Sequence record: NC_049813.1
Source of the DNA: Escherichia phage vB_EcoS-12210I
Reading direction: 5' to 3' (one strand)
DNA length: 44,219 nucleotides
The first letter of the stretch is position 1, and each line of letters begins with the position of its first letter. Under the pieces are notes generated by a model, which worked only from the letters and a program-made list of their open reading frames with translations, ran no database searches and had not been told where the DNA came from. The translations under genes were made by a program, and so were the position numbers. Positions 2,752 through 40,103 of this stretch are shown here, piece after piece.

Positions 2752-3081
2752 ATGAGAATGACAAGCACAAGAAAAAAGGTAATTGATTGCATACTACACT
2801 GCACTGAAGGATGCGATAGGTACAGCCCTACCGCGGATGATGTATCTAGATTGACAGGAATCCAAAGGGCTAACGCAAGGAGGACCTTGCTTGAACTTGA
2901 ATCTTATGGGGTTGTTGAAAGGGTTGAAGTTGCCTCTTACTACTCAGTCTCAAGGCGTATTGACATAAAAAGAAAATGTACAGGATGGAATGTTACAGGC
3001 AAAAAACCAGAGCCAATAGAGAGATTGAAGCTGTCTCAGGATGATGCTGATAAATTGATTAATAAAATTTTTGGCGGTTAA
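2752..3081 (+). CDS. Putative winged-helix DNA-binding regulator, 109 aa
   Basis: GGAGGA RBS; HTH-like segment SPTADDVSRLTGIQRANARRTLLELESYGVV. Confidence 0.5.
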   Translation: MRMTSTRKKVIDCILHCTEGCDRYSPTADDVSRLTGIQRANARRTLLELESYGVVERVEVASYYSVSRRIDIKRKCTGWNVTGKKPEPIERLKLSQDDADKLINKIFGG

Positions 3082-3730
3082 AATGAATATCAAGCCATTT
3101 AAAGATACCAACGTTGCCATGATGAGCACCAAAGAGATCGCGGGGTTAACTGGTAAAGAACATAATAAGGTAATTCGTGATGCCAAGGAAATGATCAATG
3201 ATTTGATACATTATAACAACTCCTCATACTTAAGGAGTGAGGATTATCAAGTACTTACAGATAATTTAGGCTATACATCAGAGATTTTACTTAACAAGGA
3301 ACTTACAGAAACGCTAATAACTGGCTACAGCGTCATTCTTCGTCACAGAGTTATCCGTCGACTTCATGAGCTTGAGGCGTTAGTTAAAAAACAAGCAGAA
3401 GTAATCAGCCAGATGGTAAGCATTAATGAACTTAAAGAGGTTCGAATGATGCTTGGTGTGGCTAATGCGCAGAATGCACACCTGAGCCAGCGCATTGTTG
3501 CAGAGCAAAGAATAAATGAGATCTTACTCATGGATAAGAGTACCGATGAAAAACTAGACATGCTGGCTTGTGAGGCTCGCCAGTGTTGGGCTAGTCGTTC
3601 TGATGAGATGGAGGAAAGATTTAAGTATGAAGCCCAATGCTTCGCCCTTAAAGAAAAGAATGATGCGCTGACTGGATTGATTGAGAATAATCTCGGAATT
3701 GACATTAAGCTGCTGCTGGAAAAGAAATAG
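3071..3730 (+). CDS. Rha-family phage regulatory protein (putative)
   Basis: N-terminal MSTKEIAGLTGKEHNKVIRDAKEM resembles the Rha/pRha motif; coiled-coil-like C-terminus. Confidence 0.5.
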   Translation: MAVKMNIKPFKDTNVAMMSTKEIAGLTGKEHNKVIRDAKEMINDLIHYNNSSYLRSEDYQVLTDNLGYTSEILLNKELTETLITGYSVILRHRVIRRLHELEALVKKQAEVISQMVSINELKEVRMMLGVANAQNAHLSQRIVAEQRINEILLMDKSTDEKLDMLACEARQCWASRSDEMEERFKYEAQCFALKEKNDALTGLIENNLGIDIKLLLEKK

Positions 3731-22329: not shown

Positions 22330-23904
22330 TTATTTAATTCCTGCGAGGCGTAACATCCGCGATTTAGGGTCATCTGCAAGGTTTAGCTCGCAGTTTATTG
22401 CCATTGTTGTTGTATCTACAATGTCATCATGGCGGTGGCTCATGTCTGCTGTAAATGCTGAAAACTCAGAGATGAATGCACTCATCCACGGCGCCGATTC
22501 TGGAATCATTACATTTCCAGCCTTAATCTGAGGCATTGCTGACAGCACTCTGGTAACTTTATCTGTATCTGGTATAAATGGCTCAATAGGTGTACGCATA
22601 ACCCTGCTTGCAGATTGAATCAGACCGATACCAGATGCTTTCTTCTCGATGATTACCTTCCGAAGAATACCCTCCTCCCGATTAGTCTTTCTCGCATTGG
22701 ATTCAAACTCTAGCAAGGTAGCCTCAAGCTCGGGCGCTTCATACTTACCCCTAACCATATCAAGAAGGTATAGCTTTCTGTCTTTTACTCCCCACAGCTG
22801 GAATACACTAAAGTCACTGTACGACTTCGTGGTAAGCGCGGTATCCGCAGTAATAAATCGGTAATCATACTTCAATGGCGCTCGCAAATCTCCACCGTAA
22901 CGTATAAACCAATCCGTATCCACCATGTTGCCACCTAGAGCTATGGGGCTTTGCATATATTGACTTGCGAACGTGTATGGGTCTGCGTCTTGCATAGCCA
23001 TTAAATCATGAATGGATTCCTTTTGTGGGTAGTAGCTGTAGTACTTAACACCATCTCGCTCGATGTACTCACTAGATAGAACGTCAGCCTCGAAGTGTGG
23101 TTTTAACCAGTCAGGAAGTGTGTCGATGTAATCCTCAGTAACTATCGCCGGAATCTTCACCACATCGAAGTCTATCCCCATACCTCCAGATTCAGCCATG
23201 AACCAACTTGAGTCGTTAACATGCAATCGCTGCTGTATGGAAATAATTGGTGTGGCCTTACCCTTGACCGAGCTAGCCCTACGAGAGCGAATGGTGTTCT
23301 TCAGGAGCATATGAACCGACTCTCGGCGAACCTTGCTAAACATGTCATCAACCTTATCTACATCATCCAGCATAAGGCAACCACTATAGGTGTCAGTAAT
23401 GTAGCCGCCACGTGAACCTGTAATCTGGCCTCCGATAGCTTTTGATATCGACTCAAAGCGAACCTTGCCTGACTCATCGAGAACCTGAATCTCATCATCC
23501 TTGCACGTGCCAAACTTGCTAGGGAATAGCTCCTGAAACTCCTTGCACTTAATTAGGTCGCGCACTCGCTTAGAGTTTCGCTTAACCAGGCTATCAGAGA
23601 ACGAAAGGCTAAGATTTCGCACTTTTGGTAGTTTTAGATAGCTATAAACTGGAAAGTGGATGGATGTGATCTCGGTTTTACCGGCGCCAGGCGATACGTT
23701 TATGATTGTATCCTTTCGATCTCCGCTAATAATCTCGTCAACTATCCTGCAAAGATACCTGTGATGCCAGTTCATGATGTACTTCTGGCCCTGTGTCAGG
23801 CTGAACCATACCCGAAGGAATGTCTCGAAGTTATGCGTGGAAAGAAGCCTGATGGCTTGCTTTTCTGATTGGGATAGCTCCTCCCAAACTAAAACATCAC
23901 TCAT
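22330..23904 (-). CDS. Terminase large subunit
   Basis: 524 aa with Walker A-like PGAGKT and acidic C-terminal nuclease region; position. Confidence 0.8.
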   Translation of the reverse strand: MSDVLVWEELSQSEKQAIRLLSTHNFETFLRVWFSLTQGQKYIMNWHHRYLCRIVDEIISGDRKDTIINVSPGAGKTEITSIHFPVYSYLKLPKVRNLSLSFSDSLVKRNSKRVRDLIKCKEFQELFPSKFGTCKDDEIQVLDESGKVRFESISKAIGGQITGSRGGYITDTYSGCLMLDDVDKVDDMFSKVRRESVHMLLKNTIRSRRASSVKGKATPIISIQQRLHVNDSSWFMAESGGMGIDFDVVKIPAIVTEDYIDTLPDWLKPHFEADVLSSEYIERDGVKYYSYYPQKESIHDLMAMQDADPYTFASQYMQSPIALGGNMVDTDWFIRYGGDLRAPLKYDYRFITADTALTTKSYSDFSVFQLWGVKDRKLYLLDMVRGKYEAPELEATLLEFESNARKTNREEGILRKVIIEKKASGIGLIQSASRVMRTPIEPFIPDTDKVTRVLSAMPQIKAGNVMIPESAPWMSAFISEFSAFTADMSHRHDDIVDTTTMAINCELNLADDPKSRMLRLAGIK

Positions 23905-23922: not shown

Positions 23923-24429
23923 TTATAACTTGCTAATCACGGACTCCAGCGCCTCCTTCATACTATCAACGTCGTTAGCTGTGGAGTTGTTGCTAATCTT
24001 AATCTCCTGCGGCTTATCAATGCCAAGTTCTTTACCAACGATTGTGGAGTTGATGATACCCGCAACGCCAAGCTGATACTTCTGCTCGTAGATTACGTTA
24101 TCAATAAATTCCATCACATCAGAGTACCCAGCCTCAGTACGCCAGCGTGCGAATCTATTGATGTTGACACCCATGAAGAGCGCCAACCCGGTTAATGTGA
24201 ACACGCGCGGCTTGTGTACAAGGTTTTCACTAACAACGCCCTGGAAAGCTGCTGTCTCAATTGCCTTAATTGCCTCACTCTCTGCCCAGGAGAAGTATCG
24301 AACGGCGAAATTGAAGACCTCCTCTGGTGTGTACTTGCGGTTGATTGCCACCATGGCAATATCGCCATACTTCTTGTTGTATAGCGCCTTGAAATTTCCC
24401 TCACCCATCTTTAGTGCTGCTTTACTCAT
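23923..24429 (-). CDS. Terminase small subunit (putative)
   Basis: 168 aa directly upstream of terL; AAGGAGG RBS. Confidence 0.55.
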   Translation of the reverse strand: MSKAALKMGEGNFKALYNKKYGDIAMVAINRKYTPEEVFNFAVRYFSWAESEAIKAIETAAFQGVVSENLVHKPRVFTLTGLALFMGVNINRFARWRTEAGYSDVMEFIDNVIYEQKYQLGVAGIINSTIVGKELGIDKPQEIKISNNSTANDVDSMKEALESVISKL

Positions 24430-26839: not shown

Positions 26840-26885
26840 CTATAACAAAACCCGCCGTAGCTGGTTAGGCAAAAAGTGCTATTTA
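26840..26885 (-). promoter_or_regulatory. Promoter-like module copy g: element 26866-26885, TATAGT 26840-26845
   Basis: Element and hexamer with 20-bp spacer. Confidence 0.5.
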
Positions 26886-27139
26886 CCAACCTGAATTGAT
26901 TTAGACGATTCATGAATCATCTTCTGCCCGTAAAGCTCTTTAGCCCTCCGCAATGAATCAATCGAGTCATTAAGATCAGTAAGGTAATCTTTGTGACCAC
27001 GCAGACCAGTGCAAAGCATCTTCTTTATTGCATGCTGCGTTGCTGGGTCAGATACACCAAACGCATCAAGAACGCGATAAACATCCACTGTTGTTACCGT
27101 GCCATCAATGCCAATAATTTCACGATTGTACTTACTCAT
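26879..27139 (-). CDS. Hypothetical protein, 86 aa
   Basis: ORF in early block. Confidence 0.45.
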   Translation of the reverse strand: MSKYNREIIGIDGTVTTVDVYRVLDAFGVSDPATQHAIKKMLCTGLRGHKDYLTDLNDSIDSLRRAKELYGQKMIHESSKSIQVGK

Positions 27140-28160: not shown

Positions 28161-28583
28161 TCATTCGTATACTTTGAAGTTAGGCTCCCAGCTCTCCTCG
28201 AGGATTGCCGGATGAACATAAATCTTATCTCCAATGAGGCAAGCTAGATTCATACTCTCTAGGGCTGGGATAAACTCATCCTTAATGCGCGCCATTAGCC
28301 TGTCATTGCCACCCTTAATTCTTTTCGCCCTGCGAGCGCCTTCGTATAAAGACCTGATACCAAGCACGCCCTTGCCGTTCTTTGCCATTTTCCTAATAAT
28401 ATTAATCAGAACGCCAAGCGCTTCATCTTTGTATACTTCTGACGCATCGGGATGACCCCAGAAGCCTTGCGTTTGTCGATACCCGTTAGCATTGATTGCA
28501 ACCAGTAGCGGTGGCAGCCCATCTTGGATAGCAATATTCATAATCTGCTCGTCCGTCAGTTTCTCTTCATCGAAATTAAACAT
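28161..28583 (-). CDS. Truncated paralogue of the 31069-32652 NTPase (N-terminal and C-terminal segments only, no P-loop core)
   Basis: First about 45 aa and last about 85 aa align with the ends of the 527-aa protein. Confidence 0.55.
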   Translation of the reverse strand: MFNFDEEKLTDEQIMNIAIQDGLPPLLVAINANGYRQTQGFWGHPDASEVYKDEALGVLINIIRKMAKNGKGVLGIRSLYEGARRAKRIKGGNDRLMARIKDEFIPALESMNLACLIGDKIYVHPAILEESWEPNFKVYE

Positions 28584-29131: not shown

Positions 29132-29408
29132 GTTGATACCTCGTTTCGTTTACTTCGTTTCAGTGATTGCCATCTTGCCACTTGTTTACGTGTCGGTCAA
29201 CGTATTTTTATGTCTATTCCATCGCGGATACGTTTTTTCGGCCTCCAAGGCAGCGTCAGCACTGGTTGTAAACGTGCCGTATCCCCTGTGTACCGTTTTT
29301 GGGAGTGCTTTCCTATATATGCGCCTTTTTATTCCTACAATGTCATCCCATTCTGACAAGTGTCAGAATATCTGCGCGGAACATATCAATTATCCAATCA
29401 ATTATCGG

Positions 29409-29483
29409 TATACACAGTATACATATATATAATAATAATAATAATAATAAAGTAAAAGGTTGATATATATAGATATTATATTG
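29409..29483. repeat. AT-rich repeat copy B with (ATA)6 tract; partner at 2361-2427
   Basis: Same flanks as copy A, longer trinucleotide run. Confidence 0.8.
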
Positions 29484-29679
29484 TATATCGTGCGTATATC
29501 TCGCGTAAAAAACGTAGGTTAGTGGTAACTAACTTTTGTGACGACACTTGGTATACGATGGTTACTCGTATATCTCAAGAATGGCTCACCAAGAATGAAA
29601 ATCAACTTGTATGGTAGTCAATCCATCTTTCATTCACTCACCCACCACTTCATTTCACTTTTCGCAACAATCAAAAACA

Positions 29680-29752
29680 TCATTGCATCAGAAGCAATAT
29701 TGCTGTATGTGCAATAATCATGTGAATCATTGCAATATCTGCAACAATGCAT
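29680..29752. promoter_or_regulatory. Cluster of TGCAA-containing palindromes (AGCAATATTGCT, ATTGCAAT and others)
   Basis: 6-7 TGCAA/TTGCA copies in about 70 bp upstream of the plus-strand early operon. Confidence 0.45.
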
Positions 29753-29761
29753 AAATCTGAC

Positions 29762-29809
29762 GAATAGCGCTTTTTGCTAAAGACATTATGAGTTAGCGAG
29801 GCTATAGTT
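29762..29809 (+). promoter_or_regulatory. Promoter-like module copy j: element 29762-29781, TATAGT 29804-29809
   Basis: Element and hexamer with 22-bp spacer; start region CATCAAAAACGAGG. Confidence 0.5.
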
Positions 29810-29835
29810 AGCTCATCAAAAACGAGGAGATAGAA

Positions 29836-30015
29836 ATGAAGATTGATAAAGATGAACTTCGTAACGAATGCGCACTGATTGGGCTTAACGAAGATTACAC
29901 AGACCTTGTGTTGCGCGGAAAGTTGGACATTAACTTGGCTAAGCAATTCCAGTCAGAGGATGAATTCCTGTGCTGTGATGGACTTGGATGCGTTGAATGT
30001 TTACCATTTATTTGA
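29836..30015 (+). CDS. Hypothetical Cys-rich small protein, 59 aa
   Basis: GAGGAG RBS; C-terminal CCDGLGCVEC; below track cutoff. Confidence 0.45.
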   Translation: MKIDKDELRNECALIGLNEDYTDLVLRGKLDINLAKQFQSEDEFLCCDGLGCVECLPFI

Positions 30016-31068: not shown

Positions 31069-32652
31069 ATGTTCGATTTCAACGAAGATAAACTATCTGT
31101 TGAACAGGTTATGGCAATTGCTGCCGCAGAAAACCTCCCGCCCCTGCGCGTCGCCATTAATGCTAATGGCTATCGCCAGTCTCAATCATTCTGGAAAGCA
31201 CCAGTCGAGATTGATGCAGCTAATGACAAGTATCCAGTAATCTCACTAGGTAATGACATTGATGTTGTTGGTAAGCTGTCAGCTAATATTGCCCGTTCTG
31301 TTCAGTTCCCTGAGTCGTCAGCTTACATGCACTTCCTGGGGTGTATTTCCGCTGCAATGCTGGGTCGATTTACTGTTGAGTATCACGGAACGCAGCAACC
31401 GACTTCGCTGTACGTCGTAACGAGTCAGCCACCATCGACGGGTAAATCAGCAATCAACTCACTTTCAATTGCTCCAATGATTGCTGAGACTGAGCGACTA
31501 AATAAAGTGAGAAAGCGTGAGCGCAAGAAAATTATGGCAAAACTATCTGAATTATCCAAAGAGATGAAGCAGGAAAAATCTCCGTCAGAGATGGCTTCAC
31601 TTTTTGAGGAGAAAGAGGAACTAGAGGAAAAACTCGAGAAACTATGTGATATCGTTTTCCCTGTGTCAGATACCACACCGGAAGGACTTGCGCGAATAAA
31701 CAACCGCCAGGGCAGCTTTGCTGTAATATCAGATGAAGCAACCAGCGTCAACTCACTGCTTGGTATGACCTATGGTGATGGTTCGAAGAAAACGAACAGC
31801 GAGCTTGTGCTGAAGGCCTGGGATGCTGGTAACGTGTCAATTGCGCGTGCTAACGCAGAAAACAATATGAGCTTTGTTGCTATGGGTTGCATCTCTGTAA
31901 TTGCACAGGATGAAACAATCAATGCGATCATGAACGCTGGCGCGCGTGGTATCGGTGTATCTGAACGTTTCCTGCTTGTACGTGAAAAGTCATTCCTGGG
32001 CGAGCGTGTGTTTGTTGATGAAAATGGTGAGTCAACTTACGAACCGATAGATGGTGAGCTTAAGGCTAACTACTTCCGTCTGGTTCATGAAATCATGAAT
32101 GAACAAGAAGTTAAGTTGACAGTTAGTAATTCAGCAATGAAATATCTCAACCGCGCGCGTCAGGAGATGGAACCGCACCTTGCTGACGGCGGGAAGTATT
32201 CACACACAATGTTGCGAGGCGCGTTGGGTAAGTTCGATAAGCAGGCAATCAGGATTGCGGCGGTTCTTCACACTGTGCGTAACTGGTTCAACCCAAATGG
32301 CGGTAGCCCTCAGAAGTCGAGAGAAATTGAGCTTGATACAATGCAGGAAGCTGTAATTATGTTCCAGGAACTTAGCAAGACTTATTTGTCATCCGCTAAC
32401 GCCGCGGGTCACGCTGGCGACAATGCAGAGATGAATAAGCTGATTGATATCCTGATTAAGCAAGGCAAAAACGGGAAAGGAGTAGTAGGTATTCGTTCGC
32501 TATATGAAGCGGCTCGCAAGGTTAAGCCGTTCGAGGCTCAAGCGGGAGTAATGACGAAGATTAAAGACCACTTGCTGCCAATGCTTGATGAGAAAAACTA
32601 CACGTGCCTGATTGGTGATAAAGTTTACATTAATCCACGACTATTGGGGTGA
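31069..32652 (+). CDS. P-loop NTPase, putative replication-associated protein, 527 aa
   Basis: Walker A-like QPPSTGKS and Walker B-like AVISDEA; termini shared with the 140-aa paralogue. Confidence 0.55.
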   Translation: MFDFNEDKLSVEQVMAIAAAENLPPLRVAINANGYRQSQSFWKAPVEIDAANDKYPVISLGNDIDVVGKLSANIARSVQFPESSAYMHFLGCISAAMLGRFTVEYHGTQQPTSLYVVTSQPPSTGKSAINSLSIAPMIAETERLNKVRKRERKKIMAKLSELSKEMKQEKSPSEMASLFEEKEELEEKLEKLCDIVFPVSDTTPEGLARINNRQGSFAVISDEATSVNSLLGMTYGDGSKKTNSELVLKAWDAGNVSIARANAENNMSFVAMGCISVIAQDETINAIMNAGARGIGVSERFLLVREKSFLGERVFVDENGESTYEPIDGELKANYFRLVHEIMNEQEVKLTVSNSAMKYLNRARQEMEPHLADGGKYSHTMLRGALGKFDKQAIRIAAVLHTVRNWFNPNGGSPQKSREIELDTMQEAVIMFQELSKTYLSSANAAGHAGDNAEMNKLIDILIKQGKNGKGVVGIRSLYEAARKVKPFEAQAGVMTKIKDHLLPMLDEKNYTCLIGDKVYINPRLLG

Positions 32653-36847: not shown

Positions 36848-37041
36848 TATTCCGATACCTCATCAAATTTTTCGCCAAATGCGTTTTTAACAGTTTCTAA
36901 ATCATCTTTGTATGTCGGGCTAACTTCGAATGCGTAACCATCTCCATCATCAAGAACATAACCGTCAGCTGTAATTACTAATTCATATTCGTAACCAGTC
37001 TTGCGTGATTCGTACATTTTGCCAGTGTAGATAGTAGCCAT
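36847..37041 (-). CDS. Small acidic protein, about 64 aa (starts MATIYTG)
   Basis: Start placed after promoter module o and RBS AGAGAGAGAAA. Confidence 0.45.
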   Translation of the reverse strand: MATIYTGKMYESRKTGYEYELVITADGYVLDDGDGYAFEVSPTYKDDLETVKNAFGEKFDEVSE

Positions 37042-39629: not shown

Positions 39630-40103
39630 ATGAATGCAGTAGACAAGCGAACCATTAACGGCAATAACGGAACCATCCGCACTGAAGATAAAAAGCAGCG
39701 AAAACGACCTTCAGGTTACTACGTTTTAAAAGATGAAGTAAGAGCGGGTTTACGTGCGCGGCTGGAAATTGTTCTTGATTTCTTCGGCACAAAGGCAAAT
39801 ATGGCAAAGCAATTAAAGGTAACACCACAGGCTGTAGAAGAATGGTTTAAGCGCGGCATGATGTCGGCGCGTGGTGCTCAGCTTTCGCACAACTACTATA
39901 AGCGAAATGGAGAAGGTTTTCGCGCAACATTCTGCCGACCAGACTTGCAATTCGACGGCAACGGCAAGCCGCTGACACTTCGGTGCAAAAAACGCCACAT
40001 GCTTCGCGTGGTTACCGAGGCTGAATTAGCCACCAAGCCAGAGTGTCGGTCCTGGCGCAAAATTAAGGCCGCTAACGAAGCAGCACGGAAAGCTAAAGAG
40101 TAA
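39630..40103 (+). CDS. Putative HTH DNA-binding protein, 157 aa
   Basis: GAGG RBS; HTH-like KANMAKQLKVTPQAVEEWFKRG. Confidence 0.45.
   Translation: MNAVDKRTINGNNGTIRTEDKKQRKRPSGYYVLKDEVRAGLRARLEIVLDFFGTKANMAKQLKVTPQAVEEWFKRGMMSARGAQLSHNYYKRNGEGFRATFCRPDLQFDGNGKPLTLRCKKRHMLRVVTEAELATKPECRSWRKIKAANEAARKAKE

Follow-up and report, generated by a model that had tools for sequence, protein, structure and literature searches.

The DNA analysed here, referred to as the window, is a stretch of 44,219 nucleotides. Its segment 29100-30100 (1001 bp) is 100% identical to a set of Escherichia phage vB_EcoS isolates, which indicates that the window is a whole T1-like genome opened at an arbitrary point. 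We place this complete 44.2-kb coliphage genome in Veterinaerplatzvirus (Drexlerviridae, Braunvirinae). Its two divergent early operons are separated by an intergenic hub of 704 bp (29132-29835). Left of the hub lie the DUF7174 gene, the gene for a 140-aa protein and several small genes and, farther away, the genes for the small terminase, the large terminase and the structural proteins. To the right, small genes precede the gene for a DUF3987 helicase. The positions of these genes and of the elements found within the hub are collected in Table 1.

Table 1. Positions of the GCAA array, its flanking elements and the genes discussed in the text
Feature	Position	Strand	Remarks
Small terminase gene	23923..24429	-	P22 gp3 family: PF16677; PDB 3P9A, E=7e-16
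Gene for 140-aa paralog of the helicase	28161..28583	-	N- plus C-terminal parts of the DUF3987 helicase; opposite side of the hub
Block holding the equivalents of mapped packaging-initiation cuts	29596..29630		directly left of the array
CATTC pentamer	29631..29635		invariant in 14/14 aligned phages; left edge of conserved block 29631-29785
Site A	29652..29668		ATTTC-N7-GCAAC; extended half-sites 29649-56 and 29664-71
Site B	29682..29698		ATTGC-ATCAGAA-GCAAT; perfect 10/10 dyad
Site C	29699..29715		ATTGC-TGTATGT-GCAAT; perfect dyad abutting site B
Site D	29729..29745		ATTGC-AATATCT-GCAAC
Linker AATGCATAAATCTGACG, array to 21-nt repeat	29746..29762		92% column agreement
Copy of the T1-family 21-nt repeat (aATAGCGCTTTTTGCTAAAGAC), 'promoter element j'	29763..29785	+	itself an inverted repeat, TAGCx-N5-TGCTA
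Sigma-70-like promoter of the rightward early operon	29780..29808	+	-35 (AAGACA), 17-nt spacer, -10 (TATAGT)
Ribosome-binding site GAGGAG	29824..29829	+	ATG of the first rightward gene at 29836
DUF3987 replicative-type helicase gene	31069..32652	+	
Cro-like HTH regulator gene	39630..40103	+	phrog_2856; P22_Cro HTH at residues 48-72, under Pfam threshold

Within the hub we find an array of eight units of the 8-mer GCAAYRWT. Seven of the eight units in the window match this consensus exactly; the eighth is the left half of site A, which is degenerate in this phage and reads ATTGC in 11 of 14 aligned phages. A profile compiled from 112 half-sites gives frequencies of.99 for G,.96 for C, 1.0 for both A positions and.94 for the final T. 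The units alternate in orientation and form four 17-bp dyads of the type ATTGC-N7-GCAAY with GCAA cores 11 bp apart. Their centres are spaced by exactly 15, 15, 15, 2, 15, 15 and 15 bp, where the outermost-left value is taken from the alignment of relatives, that half-site being the degenerate one. The centres of the dyads are separated by 30, 17 and 30 bp, and the whole array is symmetric about 29698/29699. In this arrangement, four dyad-symmetric sites fit into about 95 bp. GATC is depleted across the whole genome, and the array contains no GATC/Dam sites in this phage.

The earlier note had described this locus (29680-29752) as a dense cluster of six to seven copies of TGCAA/TTGCA. That count was too high: an exact search returns five strand-specific matches in four places, at 29683(-), 29710(+), 29730(-)/29731(+) and 29740(+). 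Five is the maximum per 73 bp anywhere in the genome. Two of the three palindromes quoted for the cluster, AGCAATATTGCT (29693-29704) and ATTGCAAT (29729-29736), are true palindromes; the third, TGCAACAATGCA (29740-29751), is not, and the ATGCA it contains reads ATCCA in most relatives in our alignment. The common core is GCAA/TTGC, of which eight copies between 29664 and 29744 make up the densest 90-bp stretch of the genome. As a chance model, we simulated 1000 first-order Markov genomes, 18% of which reach at least five TGCAA per 73 bp somewhere and 4% at least eight GCAA per 90 bp. Simulations with the composition of the intergenic region itself lower these frequencies to 0.24% and 0.025%, respectively. 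Hence, the TGCAA cluster exceeds expectation only marginally, and since its density is not significant genome-wide, the case for the array rests on the order of its units and on their conservation.

The spaced motif is concentrated at this locus. Exact TTGC-N7-GCAA occurs five times in the genome, against 1.56 expected, and three of the five occurrences are in the array, inside a stretch of 62 bp. Likewise, 7 of the 30 GCAAYRWT matches in the genome fall within 85 bp. No second array or comparable site was found in any other intergenic region of the genome. One additional perfect dyad, in single copy, is located at 24342-24362 inside the small terminase gene. We do not regard it as a related site: the coding of the peptide DIAMVAI accounts for the dyad, and it is missing in array-bearing Rogunavirus. 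The array also differs in motif from the cluster at 2638-2703, as originally proposed; the latter is built of TGACTACA-N6-TGTAGTCA, and this dissimilarity implies a different DNA-binding factor.

The array region was aligned for 14 phages from at least five genera. Column agreement is highest in the half-sites (98%), followed by the stretches between the sites (86%), the N7 spacers (79%) and the two flanks (about 70%). A 135-bp core is present, at 79-96% identity, in 128 phage records from Braunvirinae, Rogunavirinae and Nouzillyvirus. Identity of the element stays at 85-95% in phages in which the neighbouring DUF7174 protein has dropped to 31-35%; a search for related loci with the DUF7174 protein as the query returned two loci. 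When viral contigs were scanned for pairs of dyads spaced by 30 bp, most of the results were chance matches. T1 and a group of T1-like contigs carry a single four-half-site arm at the same locus. Different repeats occupy this position in TLS, Webervirus-like phages and other clades: TAGACCAATCGGTCTA palindromes in TLS, GGAATA arrays in T1, Webervirus and L173-type phages, and GATC clusters. CEB_EC3a and ACG-M12 are members of one genus; the former carries the array and the latter lacks it, and in ACG-M12 the entire cut-side block is replaced. The array is unique in the genome, and strong purifying selection acts on it in the branch of T1-like phages that comprises Braunvirinae, Rogunavirinae and Nouzillyvirus. 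The cluster is very likely a functional, protein-binding cis-element.

A gene for a small protein, a structured RNA or an sRNA was considered as an alternative. Two ORFs overlap the array, one of 47 aa on the plus strand (29611-29754) and one of 40 aa on the minus strand (29630-29752). The latter is annotated as a 'membrane protein' in several GenBank records of relatives, and in the plus-strand ORF the TGCAAY repeats read in frame as Cys-Asn codons (C-N-x-x). However, the plus-strand ORF is broken or shortened in TR1, IME253, P818, e4/1c and phiA2-1. In the minus-strand ORF, the start codon is missing from IME253, phiA2-1 and CEB_EC3a, a stop follows codon 9 in e4/1c and codon 3 in phiA2-1, and the C-terminus is variable. 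Conservation follows the dyad half-sites rather than codon positions. For structured RNA at the array, Rfam gave no match at threshold, and folding z-scores of +0.3 and +0.7 are no better than those of shuffled sequences. We consider this explanation largely refuted.

The array is followed by a short linker and a copy of the 21-nt repeat of the T1 family. The earlier note was right in placing the cluster immediately upstream of a promoter element, which it called j: the sequence ATAGCGCTTTTTGCTAA at 29764-29780 is this repeat copy. The repeat occurs 16 times in the genome, against 0.16 expected. It was described in the TLS paper, where its function is stated as unknown (PMC11447400). Like the array, this repeat (aaATAGCACnnnTTGnTAAAA, PMC11447400) is a conserved non-coding motif of T1-like phages. 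In contrast to the array, which is present in one copy and clade-specific, the repeat is found in 16 copies and in all T1-like clades, and its motif (TAGCA-N5-TGCTA) is unrelated to TTGC-N7-GCAA. The array itself contains no match to the 21-nt repeat ATAGCACnnnTTGnTAA; only the adjacent element at 29764-29780 does. Downstream of the repeat lies a sigma-70-like promoter, of which, in the alignment of relatives, the -10 hexamer is semi-conserved and the spacer is not conserved. The right end of the array is 35 bp upstream of the -35-like hexamer, and the array overlaps neither of the two divergent promoter-like sites. Relative to the inferred rightward start, its sites occupy positions of about -63 to -165, and their distance to the leftward promoter-like sites is about 140 bp or more. 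Since no core promoter element is overlapped, the geometry does not suggest a classical repressor-operator role. The operator-like character originally attributed to the cluster holds in so far as this is an array of the protein-binding type.

T1 is among the first phages for which headful packaging from a pac site was demonstrated. Packaging starts have been determined by PhageTerm for TR1 (nt 3615, PMC10450929) and MSK (nt 36,862, forward strand, PMC8421802), and the deposited record of UDF157lw was reorganised from the PhageTerm result (PMC10838988). When these cuts are transferred from the relatives to the window, they map to 29622 (TR1), 29614/15 (MSK) and 29620/21 (UDF157lw), which is 40, 49 and 43 bp left of the second half-site, respectively. 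The three cuts come from three genera and two subfamilies and agree within 8 bp; the interval 29614-29622 lies 30-38 bp left of site A. The block that holds them (29596-29630) is conserved within Braunvirinae and Sd1 and is different in Rogunavirus and Nouzillyvirus. The cut sequence varies between subfamilies, whereas the array and its distance from the cut are constant. Up to about 150 bp from the cut, no element other than the block 29631-29785 is conserved across subfamilies, and the half-sites are the most constrained positions of this block. Since the direction of packaging is leftwards, the array is on the side of the first cut that is not encapsidated.

The ends of database records fall in the same region. 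Many records of the family begin or end within or beside the element, and many GenBank records, those of Rtp, Rogue1, IMM-001, ESCO41 and XT34 among them, are opened inside the array. The SU57 record, which was opened at a step in read depth, ends at about 29597 in window terms. The T1 record starts inside the homologous four-half-site arm; for T1, ESCO41 and XT34, the record start coincides with the right edge of a half-site of the site D type. The first 2800 bp of the T1 record are annotated as a repeat region, which is presumably the terminal redundancy. Authors of previous genome reports stated that the pac site was 'not identified' (SU57) or assigned it only through its resemblance to that of P22 (TLS). 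We found no sequence-level definition of a T1-type pac site in the available literature.

Our preferred reading, to which we assign a probability of roughly 0.4, is that the array is the recognition part of the pac site. We favour it because the array is unique, because it is the sole cross-subfamily conserved element beside a cut of variable sequence, and because its layout resembles that of terminase recognition arrays. According to this proposal, the terminase, with a small-subunit ring of the P22 gp3 type acting alone or together with a helper protein, would assemble on the array in concatemeric DNA. The large subunit would then cut at a fixed distance outside the array, here at about 29614-29622, and thereby open a packaging series. 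From there, headful packaging would proceed leftwards, taking in the DUF7174 gene first and then the terminase and structural genes. The cut sequence would be free to vary, whereas the array and its distance to the cut would be constrained. The array does adjoin the series-initiating cut, as positioned by transfer from TR1, MSK and UDF157lw, and it is present once in the genome, as would be expected of a pac site; it does not covary with the small terminase.

In lambda cosB (the R sites), P1 pac (the hexamers) and SPP1 (pacL/pacR), the terminase is known to bind arrays of repeated sites that lie no more than about 150 bp from the cut. Like lambda R3/R2/R1, the 4+3 copies of TGATCA/G in P1 pac and SPP1 pacL/pacR, the array is a unique cluster of short repeats near the cut. 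As in these terminase recognition arrays, the cut lies at some distance from the sites, and conservation does not extend to its sequence. The array repeats are partly inverted, as are lambda R3/R2, and the array shares with SPP1 pacL the position on the non-encapsidated side of the first cut. On the other hand, the motif GCAAYRWT and the strict 15-bp alternation have no counterpart in the lambda, P1 and SPP1 arrays, and the small terminase of this phage belongs to the P22 gp3 family rather than to those of lambda Nu1, P1 PacA or SPP1 G1P. P22 itself has a small terminase of the same family (PF16677; 3P9A), and both phages package by the headful mechanism from a defined start. The P22 pac, however, is a single asymmetric 22-bp site (GAAGATTTATCTGAAGTCGTTA) within the small-terminase gene 3, whereas the array is dyad-symmetric, repeated, unrelated in sequence and situated in an intergenic hub 5.2 kb from the terminase gene.

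A more specific and more doubtful version of the pac reading is that the recognition sequence of the T1 family consists of eight half-sites with a 15-bp period that wrap or sandwich a ring of the P22 gp3 type, with the cut 40-50 bp outside. T1 would then possess one four-half-site arm, and the window two arms in mirror image. Specificity would shift through a few substitutions on the ring surface, as in ACG-M12, and the GGAATA repeats (T1, Webervirus, L173-type) and TAGACCAATCGGTCTA palindromes (TLS) would be the pac determinants of other clades. The small terminases of CEB_EC3a and ACG-M12 differ at about 15 residues, which cluster at residues 86-100.

Several observations speak against pac. 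The main evidence is ACG-M12, the small terminase of which is 91% identical to that of the window, yet the array is absent. Conversely, the small terminases of the array-bearing Rogunavirus AKS96 and of Sd1 are only 64-66% identical. In addition, the T1 record starts on the opposite side of its half-array from the PhageTerm cuts, and the dyads, with their 11-bp core spacing and pairs at 30 bp, have the classical layout of sites for HTH dimers. In 1984, Drexler reportedly found that T1 can start packaging in lambda between genes P and Q. A search for a GCAA array between these genes found nothing similar, a result that is either negative or uninformative for pac.

The question as to which protein may read the array was approached by comparing the identities of window proteins to their counterparts in CEB_EC3a (array), AKS96 (array) and ACG-M12 (no array). 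These are 98, 66 and 91% for the small terminase; 99, 85 and 69% for the Cro-like HTH regulator; and 98, 92 and 82% for the DUF3987 helicase. It follows that the small terminase does not track the array and that the regulator and the helicase track it better. All three are candidate readers. An 86-aa protein (26879-27139) accompanies the array in most loci; we rejected it as the binder, since DTL carries the array without this protein and T1 lacks it. PDB sequence searches with the helicase, its 140-aa paralog and the regulator yielded nothing useful.

The dyads could instead be operators of a phage HTH regulator, an explanation we regard as possible but unlikely. On this view, the four dyads would hold dimers of the Cro-like protein or of another lineage-specific DNA-binding protein, with cooperative binding to A-B and C-D along one face of the DNA, and the rightward and perhaps both divergent early operons would be switched on or off. 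The array would then lie close to the pac cut by coincidence, or the protein bound to it would do no more than modulate packaging. The geometry suits an HTH dimer, as the half-sites of each dyad lie about one helical turn apart, and the promoter-associated 21-nt repeat begins 18 bp downstream of the array. Other clades have different repeat arrays at the same place beside this repeat. The lambdoid operators OR1-3 and OL1-3, bound by dimers of Cro and CI, are likewise 17-bp dyads in several adjacent copies; the pair spacing of the array is compatible with cooperative dimers, and here, too, a Cro-like HTH protein is encoded by the phage. Among the candidates, this regulator tracks the array best, including in AKS96, which belongs to another subfamily. 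Its putative recognition helix reads T-x-Q-A/T-V in the window, EC3a, AKS96 and T1 and is altered in ACG-M12 (THAVV) and TLS (NLKTV). Yet this tracking holds in 6 genomes and not across 80 further loci; it amounts essentially to one loss event with exceptions, and the glutamine rule breaks because Webervirus- and L173-type regulators retain the residue without a GCAA array. The regulator is a family-wide core gene (46-51% identical in T1 and TLS), and as the binder of the family-wide inverted 21-nt repeat, with its 16 copies, it is no less plausible a candidate. Its gene is 10 kb from the array and has no site of its own nearby, nor is there a second site elsewhere. Unlike lambdoid operators, the array is clear of the -35 and -10 elements of both divergent promoters and shows neither core promoter overlap nor activator-type spacing, and the phage is virulent and has no repressor/immunity module. 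Operators would also leave the fixed distance between cut and array unexplained.

Somewhat less probable is a replication origin in which the dyads would serve as iteron-like sites for the C-terminal domain of the DUF3987 helicase, its truncated 140-aa paralog or both, with the AT-rich tract at 29408-29490 as the unwinding element. The number of phage records with a helicase of at least 90% identity, 128, is exactly that of the records carrying the DNA element; the array was not found in the group of 15 records with 80-90% identity, to which ACG-M12 belongs. The helicase is the most conserved protein between the window and Rogunavirus AKS96 (93% over the C-terminal 95 residues; most other proteins 51-77%), and its gene and that of the paralog stand on either side of the hub. 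This co-occurrence may be plain linkage, since the helicase gene is just 1.3 kb from the array. Moreover, T1 (helicase 57%) and L176-type phages (about 71%) retain GCAA half-sites, whereas TLS-type phages (73%) do not. The C-terminal part of the helicase, which is duplicated in the paralog, is modelled as three helices and a beta hairpin, and the model of the paralog weakly matches several winged-helix proteins; however, the pLDDT is 62, no fold match is significant (E at least 0.27), and DNA binding by DUF3987 C-termini is undocumented in the available sources. The lambda ori combines four O-protein iterons with an AT-rich tract; similarly, the intergenic region here has four dyads spanning about 95 bp and an AT-rich tract, with a replication helicase gene close by. 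In contrast to lambda, the array sites lie outside any initiator gene, a distance of about 170 bp separates them from the AT-rich tract, which is kept in the array-less ACG-M12, and there is no conserved O-like initiator; a weak O-like wHTH gene (2752-3081) is absent in all compared relatives. Sites for a host regulator, such as a CytR-like protein of the LacI family, through which the phage would sense host physiology, are the most improbable of the protein-binding explanations. The CytR octamer is GTTGCATT, occurs in pairs flanked by CRP sites and has a TGCAAC core. The half-site TGCAAY overlaps this octamer, and the T1 site GTTGCATG-G-TGTGCAAC looks like an inverted pair of octamers. However, the TGCAAC core is all that the array has in common with CytR operators: the conserved flank of the half-site is on the opposite side from that of the octamer, and CytR works between tandem CRP sites, whereas the array has no conserved CRP half-sites and its lone TGTGA (29721-25) is not conserved in relatives. 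The strong conservation of an essential-looking element is also hard to reconcile with a dispensable host protein. A Fur box and a CRP site in the linker between sites C and D were ruled out, as the bases are not conserved. The roles as pac site, operator and origin are not mutually exclusive.

A full-text literature search for the motif strings found no phage paper. GenBank records that are opened inside the array, or that place a spurious 'membrane protein' ORF on top of it, conceal the element. Now that the array has been delimited to 95 bp and its distance from the mapped cut is seen to be fixed, the question of the T1-family pac site becomes testable. If the pac reading is confirmed, it would permit the rational design of packaging-competent vectors for this group of phages. 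If the array turns out to be a set of operators or an origin instead, it would still be, to our knowledge, the first such element to be defined at the sequence level for T1-like phages.

Several GenBank records of related phages, namely those of Rtp (NC_007603.1), Rogue1, IMM-001, ESCO41, and XT34, open within the array of eight GCAAYRWT half-sites that form four 17-bp dyads (29652–29745), and the element is therefore divided between the two ends of these records. In BEK1-1, CEB_EC3a, AKS96, Phleasolo, and TR1, an ORF of 38–49 aa, labeled as a membrane or hypothetical protein, is annotated over the array. Comparison among the phages indicates that this ORF is spurious. Near-identical copies of the coliphage element also occur under unrelated host labels: MG065688.1 (Campylobacter phage A110b), PP134917.1 (Pseudomonas phage PsgS01F), PQ433353.1 (Enterococcus phage, 143 kb), and OL539453.1 (Klebsiella phage). 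In some of these four records, the similarity extends to whole T1-like genomes. The likely source of all these copies is laboratory contamination by T1-like phages or chimeric assembly.

The pac site of P22 lies within the homologous small terminase gene of that phage. The sequence outside the array that most closely matches the extended dyad (TGATTGCCACCATGGCAATAT, 24342–24362) is also located in the small terminase gene, where it forms codons 23–29 (peptide DIAMVAI). This dyad is kept in Braunvirinae terminase genes at identities of at least 96%, is lost in ACG-M12 through an Ile to Val exchange, and is absent from the Rogunavirus terminase gene. We consider it probably a chance occurrence. 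The large terminase shares only 72–73% identity with its counterparts in CEB_EC3a and ACG-M12, whereas the small terminase (91–98%) and the portal protein (89–91%) are much closer to the same two phages; the Rogunavirus AKS96 protein shares 77% identity with the large terminase. These comparisons indicate mosaic exchange within the packaging module.

A 21-nt repeat known from the T1 family (ATAGCACnnnTTGCTAA) occurs 16 times in the window, compared to an expectation of 0.16, and most copies are oriented like the closest gene downstream of them. The function of this repeat was named as an open question by the authors of the TLS study (PMC11447400). Because each unit is in turn an inverted repeat (TAGCA-N5-TGCTA), it suggests a dimeric protein as the putative binder, possibly the family-wide Cro-like regulator encoded at 39630–40103. 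The intergenic hub, the 704-bp region between the two divergent early operons (29132–29835), separates the gene for a DUF3987 helicase from that of a 140-aa paralog. This fusion-like protein corresponds to the first ~45 and the last ~90 residues of the helicase and is missing the ATPase core. Many relatives encode a 172–182-aa form. The paralog might regulate the helicase or compete with it.

Coordinates of repeats, genes, and record starts in the window
Feature	Position	Strand	Remark
21-nt repeat copies	679, 2543, 3727, 14943, 25594, 26426, 27319, 27825		
21-nt repeat copies, continued	29764, 30410, 32992, 33150, 37105, 39601, 40109, 41153		
109-aa protein gene	2752–3081	+	directly downstream of palindrome cluster 2638–2703
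Rha-type anti-repressor gene	3071–3730	+	next after 109-aa gene
Large terminase gene	22330–23904	-	
140-aa protein gene	28161–28583	-	paralog of DUF3987 helicase parts
DUF3987 helicase gene	31069–32652	+	
Record start, Rogue1	29698/99		
Record start, Rtp	29705/06		
Record starts, ESCO41 and XT34	29744/45		

The other operator-like cluster described in the earlier note consists of palindromes of the type TGACTACA-N6-TGTAGTCA. The product of the adjacent 109-aa gene weakly matches winged-helix and "replication initiation O-like" proteins. No counterpart of this gene was found in CEB_EC3a, AKS96, ACG-M12, T1, or TLS, and for this reason the cluster and the genes downstream resemble an accessory module that has an operator of its own.

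GATC is strongly underrepresented in the window (60 sites, 158 expected; all 100 shuffles exceeded the observed count), and no GATC site was found in the hub. T1- and TLS-type relatives instead contain GATC clusters at the equivalent place, adjoining their record starts. The hub also contains a very AT-rich tract (29408–29490) that includes GTATAC palindromes as well as an (ATA)n run (ataataataataataataa). This tract overlaps the leftward promoter-like sites and could serve as an unwinding element. T1, MSK, and ACG-M12 have a similar tract at the same relative position.

Finally, we compared the region upstream of the first rightward 21-nt repeat in TLS (L144), T1 (L143), L165, L173, L175, and L201. 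At the position syntenic with the array, other T1-like clades contain different repeat arrays. TLS carries two TAGACCAATCGGTCTA palindromes, and mirror-arranged TTATTCC/GGAATA arrays occur in T1, Webervirus, and L173-type phages. Clusters of GATC are frequent at this position as well. The locus thus seems to serve T1-like phages generally as a platform for protein binding, in a clade-specific form.
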